Virus record (IMG/VR): IMGVR_UViG_3300036987_000310
Location: 256,001-320,000 of that record
Direction: 5' to 3' (one strand)
Source: a virus
Lineage: Duplodnaviria > Caudoviricetes
Length of the DNA: 64,000 nucleotides
The notes under the pieces are model-generated. The model searched no databases. It saw only the letters and a list, made by a program, of their open reading frames with translations, and was not told the origin of the DNA. How positions within the stretch are numbered: position 1 is the stretch's first letter; the number at the start of each line of letters is the position of its first letter. Of the stretch, positions 3,205-61,404 are shown piece by piece. A program made the position numbers and the translations under genes.

Positions 3205-3681
3205 TCAGCGGACGGAGAACATCGCGGCAGTGACGCCGAGCTCGGGCTCTTGGCCGATGGCCCACACCCGGAGGGAGACCGAGAGCTGCTTGGCGTAGCG
3301 GGACCCGATGTGGCTCAGGTAAGCCATCTGTCCGACGAACTTGAACCCATCGGCCTTGTACTCGGTCTCCTCGTCGGTGGGGGCGCCGTTCAGGAGGGCC
3401 TCGATGGCCTTGGTGGCGGTGGCGGCGTGAGAGGACATGAGCCCGCGACGATTCTTGTCCTTGGTCTCCTTGGTGGCCTGCTCGAACTCGGTCTGCAGGT
3501 GGTACATCAGGAAGGCGTTGGCGATCCGGACGTCATCCCTGTCCTCCAGAACCCGGCGGACGCCCTTCTCGCCGATGAAGGGGTACTGGCGGCCATCCCG
3601 GTTCACGACGGGCGGAATCTCGGAGGCGAGGGCGGCGAGGGTCGAGTCGAGGTCGGTGCAGTTGTCGAGATTGATCGTCAT
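3205..3681 (-). CDS. GC-rich hypothetical phage protein
   Basis: AAGGAG SD before ATG 3681; strong GC3 bias; natural amino-acid composition. Confidence 0.7.
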   Translation of the reverse strand: MTINLDNCTDLDSTLAALASEIPPVVNRDGRQYPFIGEKGVRRVLEDRDDVRIANAFLMYHLQTEFEQATKETKDKNRRGLMSSHAATATKAIEALLNGAPTDEETEYKADGFKFVGQMAYLSHIGSRYAKQLSVSLRVWAIGQEPELGVTAAMFSVR

Positions 3682-4156
3682 GGCTGGCTCCTTCGCGGGT
3701 GTTGGTTCGTCCCGCATCTTCCGTTACGCGGGGTCGGGCTCGATCTCCGCGCGGCCCCATGCCGCCCGATCATCGTCTCCCGTCCTCGCACCCTCCGGTA
3801 CCGCCTGGGGCCCCAGATCCCCGCCCGGTGGGGCGGTGTGTGCATGTGTATTACCATGTGGGATAGACCGGAAGTCCGGGGGTCTCCTGGGTATCCATCT
3901 ATAGGGAGGGGTTATACCTATGTATATGTAGTATACCATACCACATAGTGGAGATAGAGAGGGGTTGCAAGTACCCCTTCTTGGGAGGGGAACCGGATGC
4001 ATGCCTGAAAATGGGTCCTCGCGAAACGATCTGGGTCCGCTCAGTTTTTGCGCAAACAGTTCTTTTCGTCCGATTAAACACTGACCGATTGTTCAGTATT
4101 TCGATTGTTCAGTGTTCCAAGGAACAAACGGCATTCATCGCCAGAAGCAAAACGCC

Positions 4157-4378
4157 ATGAGAAGGACCGATGGCAAGATTGTTTGCGACCTGAACAGTTG
4201 CACGGCCCTGGCTGTTGTGGCGATGGTTGGAAAGCCCAACTCCGGGGATTTGGGGCCGGAGTGGGTGTCGTTCAGGTGCGCCGAGCATTCGGGGCCGTCG
4301 TGGGATCGGCATGTCGACAAGATCCCGGTGCAAGAGTGGGAAAAGCTTCAAGGCTTGAGGGAAGTGCACGAGTCGTGA
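4157..4378 (+). CDS. small Cys/His protein with C-terminal LREVHES tag
   Basis: C...C...C..H pattern; shared C-terminal motif. Confidence 0.55.
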   Translation: MRRTDGKIVCDLNSCTALAVVAMVGKPNSGDLGPEWVSFRCAEHSGPSWDRHVDKIPVQEWEKLQGLREVHES

Positions 4379-4463
4379 AGCTTTTTGGTGGAAAGCTTCG
4401 CTTTGGCTGAAAAAGCTTTGGGTCCTCCAAACAATTTGTAAAGCTTTTTTGGCGGGCGTCGTC

Positions 4464-4754
4464 ATGGCGTGCAATTTCCATGGCGTGGCGCAAAGAGTCG
4501 CTGCGGCTCAAAAAGTGCTGGACGGCAGGGTTGGCGATGGGAAAATTGTTTGGGATTTTCTCGAGGATCTCAAGAAGCGCATGAGCGAGGAGGCGCGAGA
4601 CTACGACGATTGGGGAAGGAGCGTTCCCTTGGCGCAAGAGGCTTTGCGCCAAGTGCAAAGCGGCAGCTTCGCTTCGCTCAGCGACGACGCTGTGGGCGTG
4701 CTGACGTCCAATGTGAAGCAGCTTGTCGACAATCCGTGGATGGCCGGAGTCTGA
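4464..4754 (+). CDS. hypothetical protein with N-terminal VAQRVAA motif
   Basis: 96-aa ORF; shares RVA motif with other ORFs. Confidence 0.55.
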   Translation: MACNFHGVAQRVAAAQKVLDGRVGDGKIVWDFLEDLKKRMSEEARDYDDWGRSVPLAQEALRQVQSGSFASLSDDAVGVLTSNVKQLVDNPWMAGV

Positions 4755-4779
4755 CCTTCGAACGTTGTCCGATCGCTCG

Positions 4780-5256
4780 TCACTCTCTCATGGTCTCGGC
4801 CACGCAAACCAGGTCTGAAATTCTCGCAGCCAACTCGGCGTTTTTCATTTTCGACAAAATCCTTTTGGAGGACGGGCGATAAAGAAACTCCTTTTTCGGG
4901 TCCTCCAGCCCGCCATGGCTTGTCACCATGGCCACAGCTGCTTCCAGAGTCCACGAGTTTGTTTGGAGGTGCCAGCCGCGGCGCCGCTCAAACACCCGAA
5001 AGTCGCCAGCTTGCCCAGCTGCGTCCGCTATCCCGGCCATTTCCGCAGCTAGCGCCTCCCGCATCCCCTCGTTCGCTTCCTCAAACGGCCCGTCCTTTTT
5101 CCAGTTTGCAAGCTTTGCTTCAAACTTTCGAATCGTCAGAAAAGCTAGGCTTTTCTTCGGCCAGTGCTGCAGCTCGCCGCGCGGCCCGATCGCCCACGCT
5201 TCGCCGTTCAAAACTGGAAGCGCGCTCCCTAGGTTTTCCCAAATTGTTTTCAGCAT
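4780..5256 (-). CDS. hypothetical protein with C-terminal VAETMRE tag
   Basis: ORF from internal ATG; shared C-terminal motif. Confidence 0.5.
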   Translation of the reverse strand: MLKTIWENLGSALPVLNGEAWAIGPRGELQHWPKKSLAFLTIRKFEAKLANWKKDGPFEEANEGMREALAAEMAGIADAAGQAGDFRVFERRRGWHLQTNSWTLEAAVAMVTSHGGLEDPKKEFLYRPSSKRILSKMKNAELAARISDLVCVAETMRE

Positions 5257-11001: not shown

Positions 11002-11072
11002 AATCTTCAAAAGAGTTTTTGAAACGTCGTATACTTTAGACTTTTAATGTAATGTTTAGTAGTTGGTAAACA

Positions 11073-11429
11073 ATGAACAAATTCGGAGAATACGTTAAAA
11101 ACGTCCGGGAAGCTAAAAAGGCTGAGGACTCAAGTTTTTCTCTTAGAAAAATTGCCCGAAAAGCGGGGATGTCTCCAACATTTCTAAGCCGAATGGAATC
11201 TGGGTCTGACTCTTCGCTTCCGTCAGATGAAAAAATAGTTAAACTCGCTGAAGCCATAGGGGAAGACCCCGACGTCTTATTGGCTGTGGCTGGAAGAGTT
11301 TCAAGAAGGCTCCAGGATGTCATAACAAAGCGGCCACAGCTTTTTAGGGAATTGATCCTCCAGTTAAAAGACGCTCCCGATCATGCGATTCTGAGGGTGG
11401 TTCGAGAAGTCAGAGACGGAAAGTGGTGA
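11073..11429 (+). CDS. XRE-family helix-turn-helix regulator
   Basis: FGEYVKNVR...SLRKIARKAGMSPTFLSRMESG. Confidence 0.9.
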   Translation: MNKFGEYVKNVREAKKAEDSSFSLRKIARKAGMSPTFLSRMESGSDSSLPSDEKIVKLAEAIGEDPDVLLAVAGRVSRRLQDVITKRPQLFRELILQLKDAPDHAILRVVREVRDGKW

Positions 11430-12685
11430 GGAATACGCAAATGTTGGAACTAAAAAACTACAAGCTCTTTTTTCAGTTTTCGGAAGTTCATCCGAGCGCT
11501 AGACTCGAAGTGATCTTTCACCGAACGCTTCGCATTCCGGACGACGAAAAAACTTACCCGCTCCCCCCGAGCTTAGGAACTTTTCCGATTGCCCATGTCG
11601 ACGACTACAAAGACAAGGTTCCGGAAAAATGGATAAAGCACGGCGGGGTAATGCTCCCCATGTGGCAATCTGAAGCAGTGTGGCTTCAGTTCGTGTCGTG
11701 TCATGTTCCCGGTCATTCGCATGTGTGGCCTTTTGCCATCAAGGTTTCCACTGGGAAAAGGTCTGCAGTCACCGGGAAAGCATGGTCAAAGACTCTTCGA
11801 GAAGGAGACTACCTGGTCATCCCGGAACAGAAATGGCTTGACGGGTATGTAGTGGAAGACGGCGTAATCAGGCAGTTTATCGCTGCTCCGCTTGGGATGG
11901 GCGCCACGGCAGAGGAGCAGATCACTGGGAAGGCTGAACACGGTGGTCTGCAGATCGAAGTATACCCCATGTCCGCTGTCGAATATATGAAAAGATGGCC
12001 TCAGCTCCCTGTTACACGTCAACGCAGGTCCATACTCCGAAGTTATGACAACGGCGAGGAAAAAACGCTTGGCGGAGTCGAGCTTTTTGACTTTGACTAT
12101 GAAAGAGAAGCCGATGATGACACGACGCCAATCGCGTGTGCTGGGTCTAGCGCGTATCTAACCGGATCCGTAAACGTTTCCAACATTTCCGAGATTTCCG
12201 AGAGTTGGTCGTCGACGTCAGTCAACACGGTCAACGCATCGTGGAACGGAGCTCGCGGCATAACGACGAAGAACTGCTCACTCACGCCGCAGTCTGCAAC
12301 AATTCGTCCCGACATGGGTCTTGCTCCTGGTGGCCGGATGGCGCAACAGGTGTTTTCTGACACCTATGGCATGGAAGTTTGGGACACAAGTCACCACGAT
12401 AGGTGCTTCGTTCACTTGTCAAACTCTTTAGCATGGAAGGCCATCACAGGGAAAGATGCGCCGACCATTCCGCTGTCTGCGGCAGACTATAGTCGACATG
12501 GAATGCCCTGGTTCAGTCACTATTGTGATGCCCCAACCGTGAAGCCTTCCAAAAAGATTGCCGGACTAAAGAGCGCCATACAGATCGGTGAAGAAAAAGG
12601 CGTCCCTATTGTTTTGGAGAATGAGTCGGCACAGCCGAAAACTGTTGTGCACACGACAGAAGTGCGCGATGGAAAGTGGGGTTGA
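11423..12685 (+). CDS. conserved protein of unknown function
   Basis: 420-aa ORF with RTLRIPDD..YPLPP, GGVMLPMWQSEA, QKWLDG, IRQFIAAPLG, GLAPGG, PWFSHY blocks; ATG alternative at 11441. Confidence 0.75.
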   Translation: MVRNTQMLELKNYKLFFQFSEVHPSARLEVIFHRTLRIPDDEKTYPLPPSLGTFPIAHVDDYKDKVPEKWIKHGGVMLPMWQSEAVWLQFVSCHVPGHSHVWPFAIKVSTGKRSAVTGKAWSKTLREGDYLVIPEQKWLDGYVVEDGVIRQFIAAPLGMGATAEEQITGKAEHGGLQIEVYPMSAVEYMKRWPQLPVTRQRRSILRSYDNGEEKTLGGVELFDFDYEREADDDTTPIACAGSSAYLTGSVNVSNISEISESWSSTSVNTVNASWNGARGITTKNCSLTPQSATIRPDMGLAPGGRMAQQVFSDTYGMEVWDTSHHDRCFVHLSNSLAWKAITGKDAPTIPLSAADYSRHGMPWFSHYCDAPTVKPSKKIAGLKSAIQIGEEKGVPIVLENESAQPKTVVHTTEVRDGKWG

Positions 12686-12686
12686 T

Positions 12687-12932
12687 ATGTCTTGCAGGAT
12701 CACGTGCTGTTCGAATCACTGCTACCATGTAAACACAGACCCGATTCACATGGTAGTTCCATACGGCCATTTGATATACAAATGCTGCAAGTGCGGACAC
12801 ATTATGGTAACTGCTCCATACCACCCGGTCCAAACGTGGGCTTGGAGCCCGACTGTCATGCCGGGGCCCGTCACAGTTTGCACGACATGGTCATTCAATC
12901 GCGATCAAGTTAGGGGTGGAAGGTGGACTTGA
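12687..12932 (+). CDS. small Cys/His-rich protein
   Basis: ATG 1 nt after previous stop; CC..HC..H and CCKCGH; ends QVRGGRWT. Confidence 0.55.
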   Translation: MSCRITCCSNHCYHVNTDPIHMVVPYGHLIYKCCKCGHIMVTAPYHPVQTWAWSPTVMPGPVTVCTTWSFNRDQVRGGRWT

Positions 12933-13320: not shown

Positions 13321-13818
13321 GTGTTTAAGTTTCTAGCCAGTCATGTGAAGGTAAAGCGTGTCAGAGTCTCTCTTCTTCTGAAAAACAGAAGTCTCAGATC
13401 GTCAGACATTCTTGACAATCTCCGACCGAGCGTAACGCTCGAGTTTCCAGGCGGAAAGTGCAAGACGATAGTCATGAACGACTGGCGAAAGTCTCCGTCT
13501 GACGTGTACACTAAACTTGAAAGGATAGTTAGACACTTTTCTGGAGATAAGCCTGAGGCATGCTACGAAGCTTCCAAAAGGATATGGAAGCGCGTCAAAA
13601 CAGCAGTGCGCGCCGAATCCAGAAAAAAGTCCGTAAAGAAAAGATTTGACACAGCACACAGAAGAGAAATTCGTCGGTATGTTTTGTCAGACATAGAAAA
13701 TAGTCTAAAGGCCCTATCTAAAAAATCGATAGCAAAACACATTCGGCCGAAAGATTTGGCTGAAGTATGGAAGCGCCTTCAGGGAGAAAACATGGTGGAA
13801 AAGATCATGAACGGATGA
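13321..13818 (+). CDS. basic protein with C-terminal VEKIMNG tag
   Basis: K/R-rich 165-aa ORF; shared C-terminal motif. Confidence 0.6.
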   Translation: MFKFLASHVKVKRVRVSLLLKNRSLRSSDILDNLRPSVTLEFPGGKCKTIVMNDWRKSPSDVYTKLERIVRHFSGDKPEACYEASKRIWKRVKTAVRAESRKKSVKKRFDTAHRREIRRYVLSDIENSLKALSKKSIAKHIRPKDLAEVWKRLQGENMVEKIMNG

Positions 13819-58080: not shown

Positions 58081-61000
58081 ATGCCTAGCACAGAAAAGAA
58101 GCAAAAGAGCGAACTTGTTAGCGTCATAGACAGCTTCTTGGACGAGAAGCAGGCTGGAAAAGATGAAAACAAGGTTGAGTTTCTATCAATAATAGATTTC
58201 ATCGAAAGGTTCAAGCTTCTTCCAGATGGTCTTTTTCCGGTTCAAAAATTCATTCTGAAGTTATACTATAACATACCGCTGGACGACAAAGAAAAAACAA
58301 TTAAAATAACTGACAGGTTCAACGTCAAAGTTCTTTACGAGTTCACTGAAGTAGAATATCTGGAATTCCTTCATGACCAGGGAAGATGCAATATAAAAGC
58401 TCAGGACTCACATGTTAGACATGAACTGATTCTGGTTTTGGGGCGCAGGTCTGGTAAGTCCACTCTTAGCGCCATCATATCCGCATACGAGCTGTACAAG
58501 CTTTTGCGTCGAGTGTGTCCTCAGGCGTTTTACGGCATACCAGTTAATAGCGAAATCCGAGTCCTTTGCATAGCAAACGACAAAGAGCAAGCGTCCATTG
58601 TTTACGGGGACATGGCTGGGTATGTTGATAATGTGGACTATTTCAAATCGTCCATGACAAATCAGACTCAGACGTTCATGAGGTTTCAGACCGATCAGGA
58701 CAGGAAAAAATATGGTAAAAACGGCAGGTCAACCATTGCGGCCACTTTCAAAAGTTCAATAGCTAAAGGTCTTCGTGGACGCGGAATTATATGTTATGTT
58801 CTTGACGAAATAGCATTTTTTGTGGACGATGGTAAATGTGTGAAGTTGTCTAGTCTGGTGCGGACATCAGATGGTTTGCGCACCTTCGATGAAATCTTGG
58901 ACACCAATAACGTGGACAGGTCCAAGACCGGATGGACTAGTATTCGTCCTATCGAGGTACTTCAGGAGTTAGGACACACAGCTGTCGCCACCCGAGTCTA
59001 TTACGGTGGTAGGCAGATGGTCAGAAGCGTTGTTACCAAGTCGCGCTATAATATAGATCCGACGCCTCAGCACAGACTGAAGGTGATGTCGGCTAGCGGC
59101 AATATCGAATGGAAGTATGTGAGAGATATCCAGGTAGGCGACTACGTTGGTATCAATCGATCTGCGCGAATTTGGCCTGGTAGATACGTATGCTGTTCGG
59201 AAGTTCATCGGGCCAAGAATGTGAGGTGTACGCAAGTAGCTAGGATTCCTGAGTTCTTGGATGATAAACTTGGCGAGTTCTTGGGGGTGCTAGTCGGAGA
59301 CGGTACTTGGTGTTCTGGGGAAGATGACAACCTTGTGCAAGTCACTGGTGGGTGCGAGCAGTTTCTGCCGTTTGTACAGGAGCACTTTGCTAGATATTTT
59401 GACACTTTTCGAATCCACCATAAACCACCACATGAGCATAACACTTGCGAAGTGTCTCCGTGGTCGGTTACCAAGTGCTCGCAGCCGTTCAGGACCTTTT
59501 TGGACAGTCTGGGCTATCGCTTCGATGTGACCAAAAGCACAAAGTCCGTGCCATGGGTCATCTTCCAGAGCCCGAAATCGGTTGTGGCGGCATTTCTTAG
59601 AGGATTGTTTGAGACTGATGGTGGGTGTGAGCAGGGCGGCAGAACTGTCACGTTAGCGTCCGCCAGCGAGCAGTTGATGCGTGAGGTGCAGCTGCTTCTG
59701 CTGGATTTTGGCATCACTGCTAGTCGATATAGCAAATGGAATCGCAAATATCAGCGAACATACCACTACGTTCGCCTGATCGGGTATGAATCGCGCAAGA
59801 TATTCGCGCGCGAGATCGGGTTCATAACTCCAAGGAAGCAGGCTGAATTGGCCATGGGGGTGCAGTCTGGCCGTGACGCGTCCAATATAATCCCCAATCA
59901 GACAGAGCGTCTGCGGAGGATCCTGCTGTCGGTGCCGAAAGCGACGACGCTGAGCCGAGGAAATGATGCCAGAACGCGCATGATACGGCTTTGTTCCAGT
60001 TCTGCCAATCCGAAGCGGCGCAGCTCCATATCGTATGGCTTGGCTCGTCGCTTTGTGGACCTCGGTCGTAAGCTTGGGGCCGACATGAAGGCCTTGGCGG
60101 AACTCGATCACATCTGCCGCACGAATTATTACTGGGACAAGGTTGTCTCCGTGTCTGATAACGAAGCAGATGTTGCAGACTTACTGGTCCCGGATGGGCA
60201 TGAATACGTCGCCCAGGGCATGACGAACCACAACTCGTCGGCGGAACAAATATATAGAGCCATCAATCCATCCATAGCTCAGTTTTCTCCAAAAGATCCG
60301 AAGAACAAACACAAAGCGGTTGGTCCGTCTGATGGGCGAGCTATCATGATCTCGTCCCCAGACGCTAGAGATGGGTTCTTCTATAGACATTATCAGTTAT
60401 CTCTTAGCGGAGGGCCTGCTTCAAAAAACATACTTATGATTCAGGCCCCCACTTGGGAAGTAAACCCCACTCTCGACAAAAGTTATTATGAAGTCGAGTT
60501 CAGCAAAGATCCGAAGTCGTTTACCACAGAGCATGGCGCGGAATTTTCTGACCGCGTTCGCGGATGGATAGAGGACTCGAACGACTTGCTGGAATGTGTG
60601 AACCCTGAGCTAAAACCGATCATAAGGGGAGGCCCTCGAGAGCTTTTCTGGGCTGGAGTGGACTTCGGAATCGTAAGAGACGGAACTGCAATAGCACTTG
60701 TTCACTTTGTGAACGGAAAAATTGAACTGGCATACCACGAAGTTTGGTATGCTGGAAAAAATTGGAACGAGTCAAATCCACACCTGACTGTTCCGCTCAC
60801 TGAGTATGCAAGAACGTTAAAGAGCGTTTCGCGTCTTGACATGTCTGAAATTTCTGAGTGGTTTCGCGTCTTGTCGACAAGATTCTATATTGAAAAGGGG
60901 ATTTTTGATCAGTGGGCTGGTCCAATTTTTGAACAAGAACTGCACAAACGCGGGCTGAAGCAGTTTGAAATGAAAAACTTTTCTGTATCCGATTCGTCCC

Positions 61001-61404
61001 ATGCTTATCACATGGCCAAAATGTGCATGTTTGGGCGTCAGTTAAGTATATACAATTATCCAATTTCTACTCACATTGTTACAGATTCCACGATGTTGAA
61101 ACATTCTCCATTGGTGTCTGAGTTGTTGGAGCTTCAGGCGACATCTGGTGGGAAAAACATAACGATTGTTGAAGCGCCAAAAGTTGCTGGGAAACATGAC
61201 GACATGTCTGACGCTTTTGTTCGTGGGGTCATGTTGGCTGTTGAATATGTGAAGAGTCATCCCGGGGTGTTGGAAACGAGCATGCGACATATTGTTTCTC
61301 CTGTGCAGCAAGCTCCAATGCCAGGGTCATATCATAGATACCACAGCATGCGGAAAAGAATGCACGGGGTTCCAGATCGTTTGCGAGACCCAAGCAGAAG
61401 ATAG
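58081..61404 (+). CDS. terL: terminase large subunit (intein-containing)
   Basis: Walker A GRRSGKS, Walker B YVLDE, coupling ISSP, nuclease GVDFG and HDDMSDA. Confidence 0.93.
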   Translation: MPSTEKKQKSELVSVIDSFLDEKQAGKDENKVEFLSIIDFIERFKLLPDGLFPVQKFILKLYYNIPLDDKEKTIKITDRFNVKVLYEFTEVEYLEFLHDQGRCNIKAQDSHVRHELILVLGRRSGKSTLSAIISAYELYKLLRRVCPQAFYGIPVNSEIRVLCIANDKEQASIVYGDMAGYVDNVDYFKSSMTNQTQTFMRFQTDQDRKKYGKNGRSTIAATFKSSIAKGLRGRGIICYVLDEIAFFVDDGKCVKLSSLVRTSDGLRTFDEILDTNNVDRSKTGWTSIRPIEVLQELGHTAVATRVYYGGRQMVRSVVTKSRYNIDPTPQHRLKVMSASGNIEWKYVRDIQVGDYVGINRSARIWPGRYVCCSEVHRAKNVRCTQVARIPEFLDDKLGEFLGVLVGDGTWCSGEDDNLVQVTGGCEQFLPFVQEHFARYFDTFRIHHKPPHEHNTCEVSPWSVTKCSQPFRTFLDSLGYRFDVTKSTKSVPWVIFQSPKSVVAAFLRGLFETDGGCEQGGRTVTLASASEQLMREVQLLLLDFGITASRYSKWNRKYQRTYHYVRLIGYESRKIFAREIGFITPRKQAELAMGVQSGRDASNIIPNQTERLRRILLSVPKATTLSRGNDARTRMIRLCSSSANPKRRSSISYGLARRFVDLGRKLGADMKALAELDHICRTNYYWDKVVSVSDNEADVADLLVPDGHEYVAQGMTNHNSSAEQIYRAINPSIAQFSPKDPKNKHKAVGPSDGRAIMISSPDARDGFFYRHYQLSLSGGPASKNILMIQAPTWEVNPTLDKSYYEVEFSKDPKSFTTEHGAEFSDRVRGWIEDSNDLLECVNPELKPIIRGGPRELFWAGVDFGIVRDGTAIALVHFVNGKIELAYHEVWYAGKNWNESNPHLTVPLTEYARTLKSVSRLDMSEISEWFRVLSTRFYIEKGIFDQWAGPIFEQELHKRGLKQFEMKNFSVSDSSHAYHMAKMCMFGRQLSIYNYPISTHIVTDSTMLKHSPLVSELLELQATSGGKNITIVEAPKVAGKHDDMSDAFVRGVMLAVEYVKSHPGVLETSMRHIVSPVQQAPMPGSYHRYHSMRKRMHGVPDRLRDPSRR
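58837..60234 (+). mobile_element. intein with LAGLIDADG homing endonuclease (466 aa)
   Basis: GK|CVKLSS ... GMTNHN|SS; LGVLVGDG and LRGLFETDG motifs; higher GC than exteins. Confidence 0.93.

Follow-up and report, generated by a model that had tools for sequence, protein, structure and literature searches.

The stretch of DNA considered here, which we refer to as the window, comprises 64,000 nucleotides (bases 256001-320000) of one 376,674-bp virus record; coordinates below are those of the window unless stated. The record has direct terminal repeats and is rated 100% complete, and its source is a huge phage. Our subject is three consecutive genes on the plus strand of the window whose products share a short C-terminal peptide, or tail. 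The first gene (11073..11429) encodes an XRE-family repressor of 118 amino acids, composed of a helix-turn-helix (HTH) domain and a C-terminal extension, and is referred to below as XRE. The second (11441..12685, with its stop codon at 12683-12685) encodes a 414-amino-acid protein of an undescribed family that we call Big, and the third (12687..12932) encodes a small Cys/His protein of 81 amino acids with an N-terminal zinc-binding-like module. XRE ends REVRDGKW, its tail E-V-R-D-G-K-W being encoded at 11406..11426 with Trp as the last residue; Big ends TEVRDGKWG (E-V-R-D-G-K-W-G, 12659..12682); and the Cys/His protein ends DQVRGGRWT (Q-V-R-G-G-R-W-T, 12906..12929). Both the tails and the different codons that specify them had been noticed in a sequence-only reading of this locus, and the endings of the open reading frames (ORFs) confirm the positions of the tails and the differences between their codons.

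Could three such tails have come to lie side by side by chance? Across the whole phage genome the pattern VR.G.W with a stop 0-3 residues behind it has three matches in 8,837 six-frame stop-to-stop segments, where 0.24-0.30 would be expected, and all three are the ends of these consecutive same-strand genes. On these numbers a chance origin of the adjacent tails was rejected. One detail of the gene layout differs from the sequence-only reading, which had Big overlapping XRE by way of a GTG start. That start (GTG 11423) was rejected in favor of ATG 11441, which has GAGGA before it at 11429-11433, on the grounds that Big homologues all begin MLELK... and that a database protein identical to the Big of the window has 414 amino acids. 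Because Big most likely starts at ATG 11441, an 11-nt spacer and no overlap separates it from XRE, whereas the 1-nt gap described between the Big stop codon and the ATG of the Cys/His gene is correct.

The tail is conserved in both of the larger families. It reads V-R-D-G-x-W in 73 of 74 XRE orthologues and V-K-D-G-x-W in the other, and the Trp is terminal in all 74. Family-wide, the Big tail is V-R-[DE]-G-x-[FW], placed at the C-terminus or 1-3 residues from it; V-[RK]-x-G-x-[WF] plus 0-3 residues ends nearly all of the 120 closest Big homologues, and the tail is kept in 70 of 76 complete homologues. The full-length Big members that could be clearly classified (173, which leaves out those with variant or degenerate tails) comprise 151 with the tail and 22 without a trace of it. 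Rarer endings are VRES.F, VRIGEF and VHDGKW, and one subfamily ends V[RK]EW.... Homologues of XRE and Big have therefore not lost the motif independently of each other. The conservation also holds at the level of the protein, as had been claimed: over 74 XRE genes and 63 Big genes the tails draw on the complete set of synonymous codons, for Val, for Arg (six), for Asp or Glu (both) and for Gly (four). No particular gene follows Big from one locus to the next, and the neighbor is often convergent or on the other strand. A cause at the DNA level, such as G-rich bases acting as a Shine-Dalgarno sequence, fails on two counts, namely this full use of synonymous codons and the changing neighbor downstream of Big.

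Where did the shared peptide originate? In a profile-profile comparison of XRE with Big (hhalign) only the last eight residues align, which bears out the earlier statement that the remainder of the two proteins is unrelated. In three divergent viral XREs (L088, L093 and L104) the 25 residues that precede the tail can no longer be recognized, yet VRDGxW has been preserved. A similarity confined to the tail, and a tail that is invariant beside drifting flanks, is the pattern expected of motif mimicry. Phage copies of Big that have no XRE nevertheless keep the tail (L094, L100 and L102), as do eukaryotic homologues: that of Naegleria gruberi (XP_002678627.1, P0209) ends ...DVRDGDW and one from EukProt (P0200) ends ...EIRDGDW. 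Both eukaryotic proteins are annotated as "bacterial integral membrane protein-like". Since amoebal homologues keep it, the tail is native to Big. We conclude that the tail is ancestral in Big, that XRE mimics those eight residues only, and that the Cys/His protein (zinc protein hereafter) acquired it recently. The three tails are one peptide, under purifying selection, that is portable between unrelated scaffolds and always lies at the extreme C-terminus.

The XRE-Big pair is widespread. A scan for Big using one genome per species gave at least 578 confirmed loci, and the best 80, which were the ones examined, represent Planctomycetota, Melainabacteria, Gemmatimonadota, Myxococcota, Acidobacteriota, Proteobacteria and further groups. 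Directly upstream of Big, on the same strand, at least 70 of these 80 have an XRE gene of about 120 amino acids, ending ...LRLVREVRDGxW; of the other loci, several are truncated by the end of a contig. The pair was also found in 14 of 27 IMG/VR contigs, mostly of 190-620 kb. The window genes at 11073-11429 and 11441-12685 match this pattern in both members, that is, an XRE of about 120 amino acids with VRDGxW at its carboxyl end followed by a Big with V-R-[DE]-G-x-[FW]. One contig of 194 kb (L094) has a ClpP gene (3380-3973; PF00574, E 1.6e-80) 28 nt upstream of its Big homologue (4001-5119); here ClpP holds the usual position of XRE and the Big homologue ends EVHDGKW, and it is a single case.

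The bacterial versions of the pair share a characteristic promoter. Of 66 loci, 35 have within the 35 nt that precede the XRE start codon a perfect inverted repeat (7 nt or longer), an arrangement seen in 2.6% of control windows. Its usual form is TGTGTAGTAT|ATACTACACA, at a distance of 3-6 nt from the ATG. Farther upstream a TTGAC-like -35 element is present in 45 of the 66 loci, and there is almost no leader. Near-identical copies of this palindrome occur across distant phyla (L011, L014, L017, L019, L032, L053-L057, L068 and others). The bacterial promoter thus has a leaderless, self-repressed, operator-in-promoter design. XRE and Big together make up a mobile cassette that is self-contained and has a promoter of the autoregulation type. 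The phage clade of the window lacks the bacterial palindrome and has a different, partly conserved upstream block. In the window, on the plus strand, is a promoter-like TTCAAA-18-TATACT (11006..11035), a candidate autoregulated promoter of the operon that consists of consensus matches only, not above shuffle expectation, and that is overlapped by a 7-nt inverted repeat, TTCAAAA/TTTTGAA, at 11006-11023.

The third gene has a far narrower distribution. Five distinct orthologues of the zinc protein (from the window, L081, L082, L085 and L095) are 40-54% identical, all are encoded downstream of Big and all are tailed; indeed, every close phage relative that was retrieved has the gene in this place (L081, L082-84, L085-87 and L095). 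Invariant in the N-terminal module are C8, H11, C12, H14, V24-P25, G27-H28 and C33-C34-K35-C36. The end of the protein is conserved as W-x-F-x(4)-V-R-x-G-x-W-x, with V75, R76, G78 and W80 invariant in 5/5 orthologues although the linker before the tail varies by about 20 residues. The zinc protein matches no Pfam family and has only a weak zinc-ribbon match in NCBIfam. A protein word-index search returned no homologues, scans of IMG/VR and metagenomes returned only the lineages already known, and an Atlas feature search gave only sub-threshold leads to small viral zinc fingers. In L095, the closest IMG/VR relative (a contig of 362 kb), the gene has a leader of its own and is separated from the Big gene upstream by about 160 nt, and therefore the tail is not a by-product of translational coupling. 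In this contig the Big gene (4001-5256) is split over two frames, by a frameshift or an assembly error, while the XRE and zinc genes are intact. No third tail-bearing ORF was found within 4-6 kb in the other approximately 100 loci. The zinc protein is accordingly a recent addition confined to one huge-phage clade of five lineages, and the three-gene phage version of the cassette is new.

These observations modify the original proposal of a tag-based module. What stands is a tag, selected at the level of the protein, that a repressor, a large partner and a metal-binding protein have in common, their genes forming a tight, co-oriented row. What needs revising is the treatment of the three as equals: all of them are tailed, but the XRE-Big pair is ancient and widespread and the tail is native to Big, whereas the zinc protein is limited to a clade. 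Two of the functions that had been offered for the tag also lacked support. A ubiquitin-like conjugation handle (of the Cap2/Cap3, Bil or Pup-like kind) is not supported, because the tails end in W/F with Gly at -3 rather than at the end, and because inspection of ORFs and Pfam lists showed no E1 or E2 in 107 loci. The idea of a decoy for a tail-specific protease finds no PDZ or S41 protease with the cassette; neither domain turned up among the genes of the cassette or among the Pfam families of the flanking genes that were called, and ClpP was a neighbor in one case only.

What, then, do the proteins that carry the tail look like? XRE is the more familiar. Its HTH (approximately residues 4-70) is SinR/CapH/HigA-like and is followed by a three-helix C-terminal extension specific to the family. 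It matches Pfam HTH_3 (E 3.5e-9) and PADLOC capH (E 6.5e-8 over residues 1-104), and its structural match to CapH covers the CapH N-terminal domain only. A profile search of the PDB gave SinR (E 7e-8, residues 7-69 only) as the closest solved relative of the HTH. Identity to 40 orthologues from many phyla is 47-67%. The AlphaFold2 (AF2) model is all-helical with a predicted local distance difference test score (pLDDT) of 90.7; the last helix spans residues 103-114 and is followed by G-K-W, so that the tail is predicted to cap this helix, exposed at the C-terminus, with its V-R-D part modeled as helix. Structural neighbors of XRE include ClgR and DdrO. Both ClgR and DdrO are repressors under proteolytic control.

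Big belongs to no family in Pfam, NCBIfam or PADLOC, and we found no paper on this family or on the tail motif in full-text literature searches. It has 3,583 homologues in a collection clustered at 90% identity, with no Pfam domain in the 120 listed, and at 50% identity there are 4,653 clusters with E<=1e-3, of which 1,250 have E<=1e-30; family members are 340-430 amino acids in length. The AF2 model (pLDDT 75; predicted template modeling score 0.71) has residues 1-195 and 288-390 forming one elaborated beta-sandwich, interrupted by an acidic disordered linker at residues 196-287 (isoelectric point 4.2). The last 25 residues are flexible, and in the monomer model the tail itself has a pLDDT of <50 and follows a disordered tether. 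No relative in the PDB was detected by profile (0 matches at E<=10), the best Foldseek match in the PDB had an E of 0.24, an exhaustive VIA-align structure search gave only generic Ig-like sandwiches (best Z 4.7), and Swiss-Prot models provided no fold match. The weak fold neighbors, all below reliable thresholds, are ZP-C, MSP/VAP, RhoGDI, TEAD and p53-like domains.

About 65 positions of Big are invariant across phyla, and many are polar, among them H17, R28, R31, D34, D35, D55, Q76, E78, K106, Q130, D134, E158, Q160, Q302, D307, R321 and H325. We found no HExxH or Walker A/P-loop motif in Big and no match to a peptidase or ligase family, and the PADLOC library of defense systems has no match for either Big or the zinc protein. 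Besides the tail, Big has a further conserved linear motif, L-E-N-E-S (family consensus LPENES), encoded on the plus strand at 12614..12628, about 20 residues before the tail; its E393 and N394 are near-invariant in the family alignment, the region has a low pLDDT, and the motif is absent from XRE and from the zinc protein. Members of the family are also found fused to other domains. Confident fungal and protist homologues in AlphaFold DB clusters (A0A3N4LQU1, M2RLU9 and others) are fused to ubiquitin-like and RING domains, and other representatives (P0199, P0131, P0173, P0180 and P0250) have an N-terminal UBA, a C-terminal VWA, Sel1 repeats or DUF932, the C-terminal VWA taking the place of the tail in some of the tail-less members. 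The conserved polar residues and the eukaryotic ubiquitin-like, UBA and RING fusions suggest a role for Big in protein recognition or turnover and not in nucleic-acid chemistry.

A major question arising from these observations is "What do the tails bind?" The reading we favor, to which we would give a probability of about 0.4, is that the [VI]-R-[DE/G]-G-x-[WF] ending is a short linear docking motif native to Big and that the tails are rivals for a single site, probably on the beta-sandwich of Big itself. Because the tail persists in phage copies that lack XRE and in amoebal homologues, its receptor is neither XRE-specific nor bacteria-specific, and since it survives in eukaryotes and in XRE-less contexts the body of Big is the most economical receptor. 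All tails would then bind a single site, most probably on the beta-sandwich body. Big's own tail, weaker and tethered, would fill that site in cis or link Big molecules in trans, and the invariant VRDGxW tail of the repressor would compete for it, so that the availability of the repressor, and with it expression of the operon, would be coupled to the state of Big. In the phage, the zinc protein would be a third competitor or a recruited subunit.

Several observations count in favor of docking. The tail is found on a third unrelated scaffold, in five lineages, after a variable linker, and Big has been fused to modules of protein interaction (VWA, Sel1, UBA, ubiquitin-like and RING); by analogy, the fungal RING fusions may parallel the docking of a separate zinc protein in the phage. 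The palindromic operators that overlap the bacterial XRE promoters count in favor of the partner switch that the reading envisages. An exploratory comparison with the 22 tail-less members of the family identified the invariant residues lost most often in them as M300, S329, T111, N328, N394, M177 and F11, followed by R321 and H325, and five of these nine lie on strands of the C-terminal domain, which may represent a candidate receptor surface. Other results weigh against competition for a site on Big. The comparison just described is small (n=22) and confounded by phylogeny. The AF2 monomer leaves Big's tail undocked on Big's body, and a prediction of the Big and XRE complex from family alignments scored 0.03, which speaks neither for nor against binding. 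Moreover, the tails of XRE stay D/W while Big tails at the same locus are often E/F, and hence there is no covariation to back a shared pocket. The word "effector", when used for Big, is a label only.

If the docking site were not on Big, might it be on a protein of the host? The tail could serve all three proteins as a degron or an adaptor handle through which they reach a host hub, for example a protease of the Lon, ClpXP or FtsH type, leading to their joint turnover or allowing the repressor and the zinc protein to act as decoys that protect Big. We regard this as the most credible of the alternatives, albeit improbable on balance. The precedent is HipB, an XRE-type antitoxin in which a universally conserved C-terminal Trp on an unstructured tail acts as a signal by which Lon degrades the protein, and in which the same Trp has been seen in a surface pocket of the partner (PMC3376134). 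The HipBA locus, a type II toxin-antitoxin module of E. coli, resembles the XRE-Big pair in having a small XRE-HTH autorepressor that ends in a conserved Trp directly upstream of a partner of about 400-440 amino acids; the Pfam match of XRE is of the same kind, and palindromic operators are present at the orthologous promoters. The likeness ends with the partner, however, as Big is not a HipA kinase, judging from its lack of Pfam, NCBIfam and PADLOC matches, its beta-sandwich model and the absence of a PDB relative; in addition, the HipBA partner does not have the tail of its repressor whereas Big does, and Big homologues occur in eukaryotes. Turnover through a hub would also suit a tail that must occupy the extreme C-terminus, the ClpP gene that lies in the usual place of XRE in L094 and the resemblance of XRE to ClgR and DdrO. 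Against it, the tail is kept across amoebae and distant bacterial phyla, and the specificity of a single host protease is unlikely to have been constant over such a range. The ClpP neighbor is one case, no protease gene accompanies the cassette in the other 100-plus loci, and the V-R-D of XRE is modeled as helix and not as a disordered degron.

It is somewhat less probable again that Big is an enzyme acting on C-termini, be it a peptidase, a ligase or another modifier, for which the tails are substrates or pseudo-substrates. The repressor would in that case be cleaved or modified to switch the operon on, as in CapP/CapH, ImmA/ImmR and IrrE/DdrO, and Big's own tail would be autoinhibitory. So many invariant positions, many of them polar, are unusual for a pure scaffold, the repressor matches capH, and the eukaryotic fusions tie the family to protein modification. 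CapH-CapP, ImmR-ImmA and DdrO-IrrE likewise place an XRE repressor, whose helical C-terminal extension may be comparable, beside its presumed controller, in mobile cassettes of the defense-island style. In those systems, though, the protease shares no tail with its repressor, and Big is not an M78/COG2856 metallopeptidase, as it has neither HExxH nor a peptidase match. Nor does it have Walker A or a ligase match, and its body is an Ig-like beta-sandwich whose weak structural neighbors (MSP/VAP, RhoGDI, TEAD and ZP-C) are binding domains.

The tails might instead bind one another, by strand pairing or aromatic stacking, such that the three proteins co-assemble into hetero-oligomers without any receptor pocket, a prospect that we consider unlikely. 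An identical peptide on every partner does resemble homotypic assembly motifs, and the alternating V-R-E-V-R-D could form a beta-strand when extended. Furthermore, in SinR/SinI the repressor and the product of a neighboring gene share a C-terminal segment by which the antagonist captures the repressor, and the HTH of XRE is most similar to that of SinR from Bacillus subtilis among solved structures. SinR and SinI, however, share a helical domain of about 40 residues, while here there are 6-8 residues on three unrelated scaffolds, which is very short for a stable homotypic interface, and most of the XRE motif is modeled within a helix. A shared domain of the SinI type was itself rejected, the XRE/Big alignment covering the eight terminal residues only.

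The weakest alternative is a signal in the nucleic acid or in translation, whether a purine-rich Shine-Dalgarno sequence, a coupling element or nascent-peptide arrest at termination: GGAAAGTGG is purine-rich and in this phage the XRE and Big tails directly precede the next gene start (11-nt and 1-nt spacers), but the codon diversity, the variable and often convergent neighbor downstream of Big, the distant zinc gene of L095 with its own leader, the eukaryotic homologues that retain the tail and the VWA-fused members that simply drop it make this very improbable.

Competition of the tails for a site on Big has parallels in several known systems. In the beta-clamp-binding motif, the tail of SSB and the cargo-loading peptides of encapsulins, unrelated proteins carry one short terminal peptide for a single docking site, and in encapsulin operons the tagged cargo genes adjoin the gene for the receptor. 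Here there is no clamp, SSB or HK97-fold shell (Big has no HK97 or encapsulin match), the sequence of the motif is unrelated, and the presumed receptor, Big, is itself tagged. To our knowledge none of the terminal peptides known to dock on such hubs involves a repressor, and in none is the presumed receptor tagged. With regard to mechanism, autoinhibition by the arrestin C-tail and the beta-sandwich peptide readers VAP/MSP-FFAT and RhoGDI are also similar in that a beta-sandwich body has a tethered tail of its own that could be displaced by the tail of a partner. The matches of Big to these folds are weak (Z 3.2-4.0, all Z<5 and below the reliable threshold), making this an analogy of mechanism and not of membership. 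The XRE-Big-zinc layout is far from any described system.

The rest of the window codes for, among other proteins, a class II ribonucleotide reductase, ThyX, a RecD2-like helicase, a clamp-loader subunit and an ORF of 1,107 amino acids (58081-61404) that combines the splicing domain of an intein with a LAGLIDADG homing-endonuclease domain. The phage genome also has a second, unrelated C-terminal tag, [VI]-[MH]-x-x-COOH, which ends 62 of 486 crudely called genes where 2.6 would be expected from the internal frequency of the pattern. Genes with this tag are concentrated at 120-240 kb of the genome; examples are the gene at 13321-13818 of the window (...IMNG) and the window ORFs at genome positions 257439-257822 and 313692-313937.

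What are the implications of these findings for the biology of giant phages and of the many bacteria that encode Big? We have described a family of thousands of proteins, from many bacterial phyla, huge phages and amoebae, that has no Pfam entry or solved structure and whose six-residue C-terminal signature is imitated exactly by a dedicated repressor. The third, unrelated carrier found in the phage makes the strongest case that comparison has yet provided for the tail as a transferable functional module and not a quirk of one family, and the eukaryotic fusions to components of the ubiquitin system, together with the second C-terminal tag on approximately 60 other phage proteins, suggest that these genomes make wider use of C-terminal tagging. 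If the tail is a degron, it would represent a new conserved C-degron. If, on the other hand, the tails compete for one site, they would constitute a new wiring between repressor and partner, and synthetic biology would gain a peptide and its receptor ready for use. On a bolder reading, Big may be the founder of an undescribed class of beta-sandwich "C-terminal peptide readers", present in thousands of bacteria, in huge phages and in some eukaryotes, gated by competition between its own tethered tail and the identical tails of a dedicated repressor and, in huge phages, of a zinc-finger subunit, and possibly ancestral to a eukaryotic ubiquitin-linked pathway. Were this the case, the cassette would embody a new, portable peptide-tag logic by which transcription is coupled to the state of an effector.

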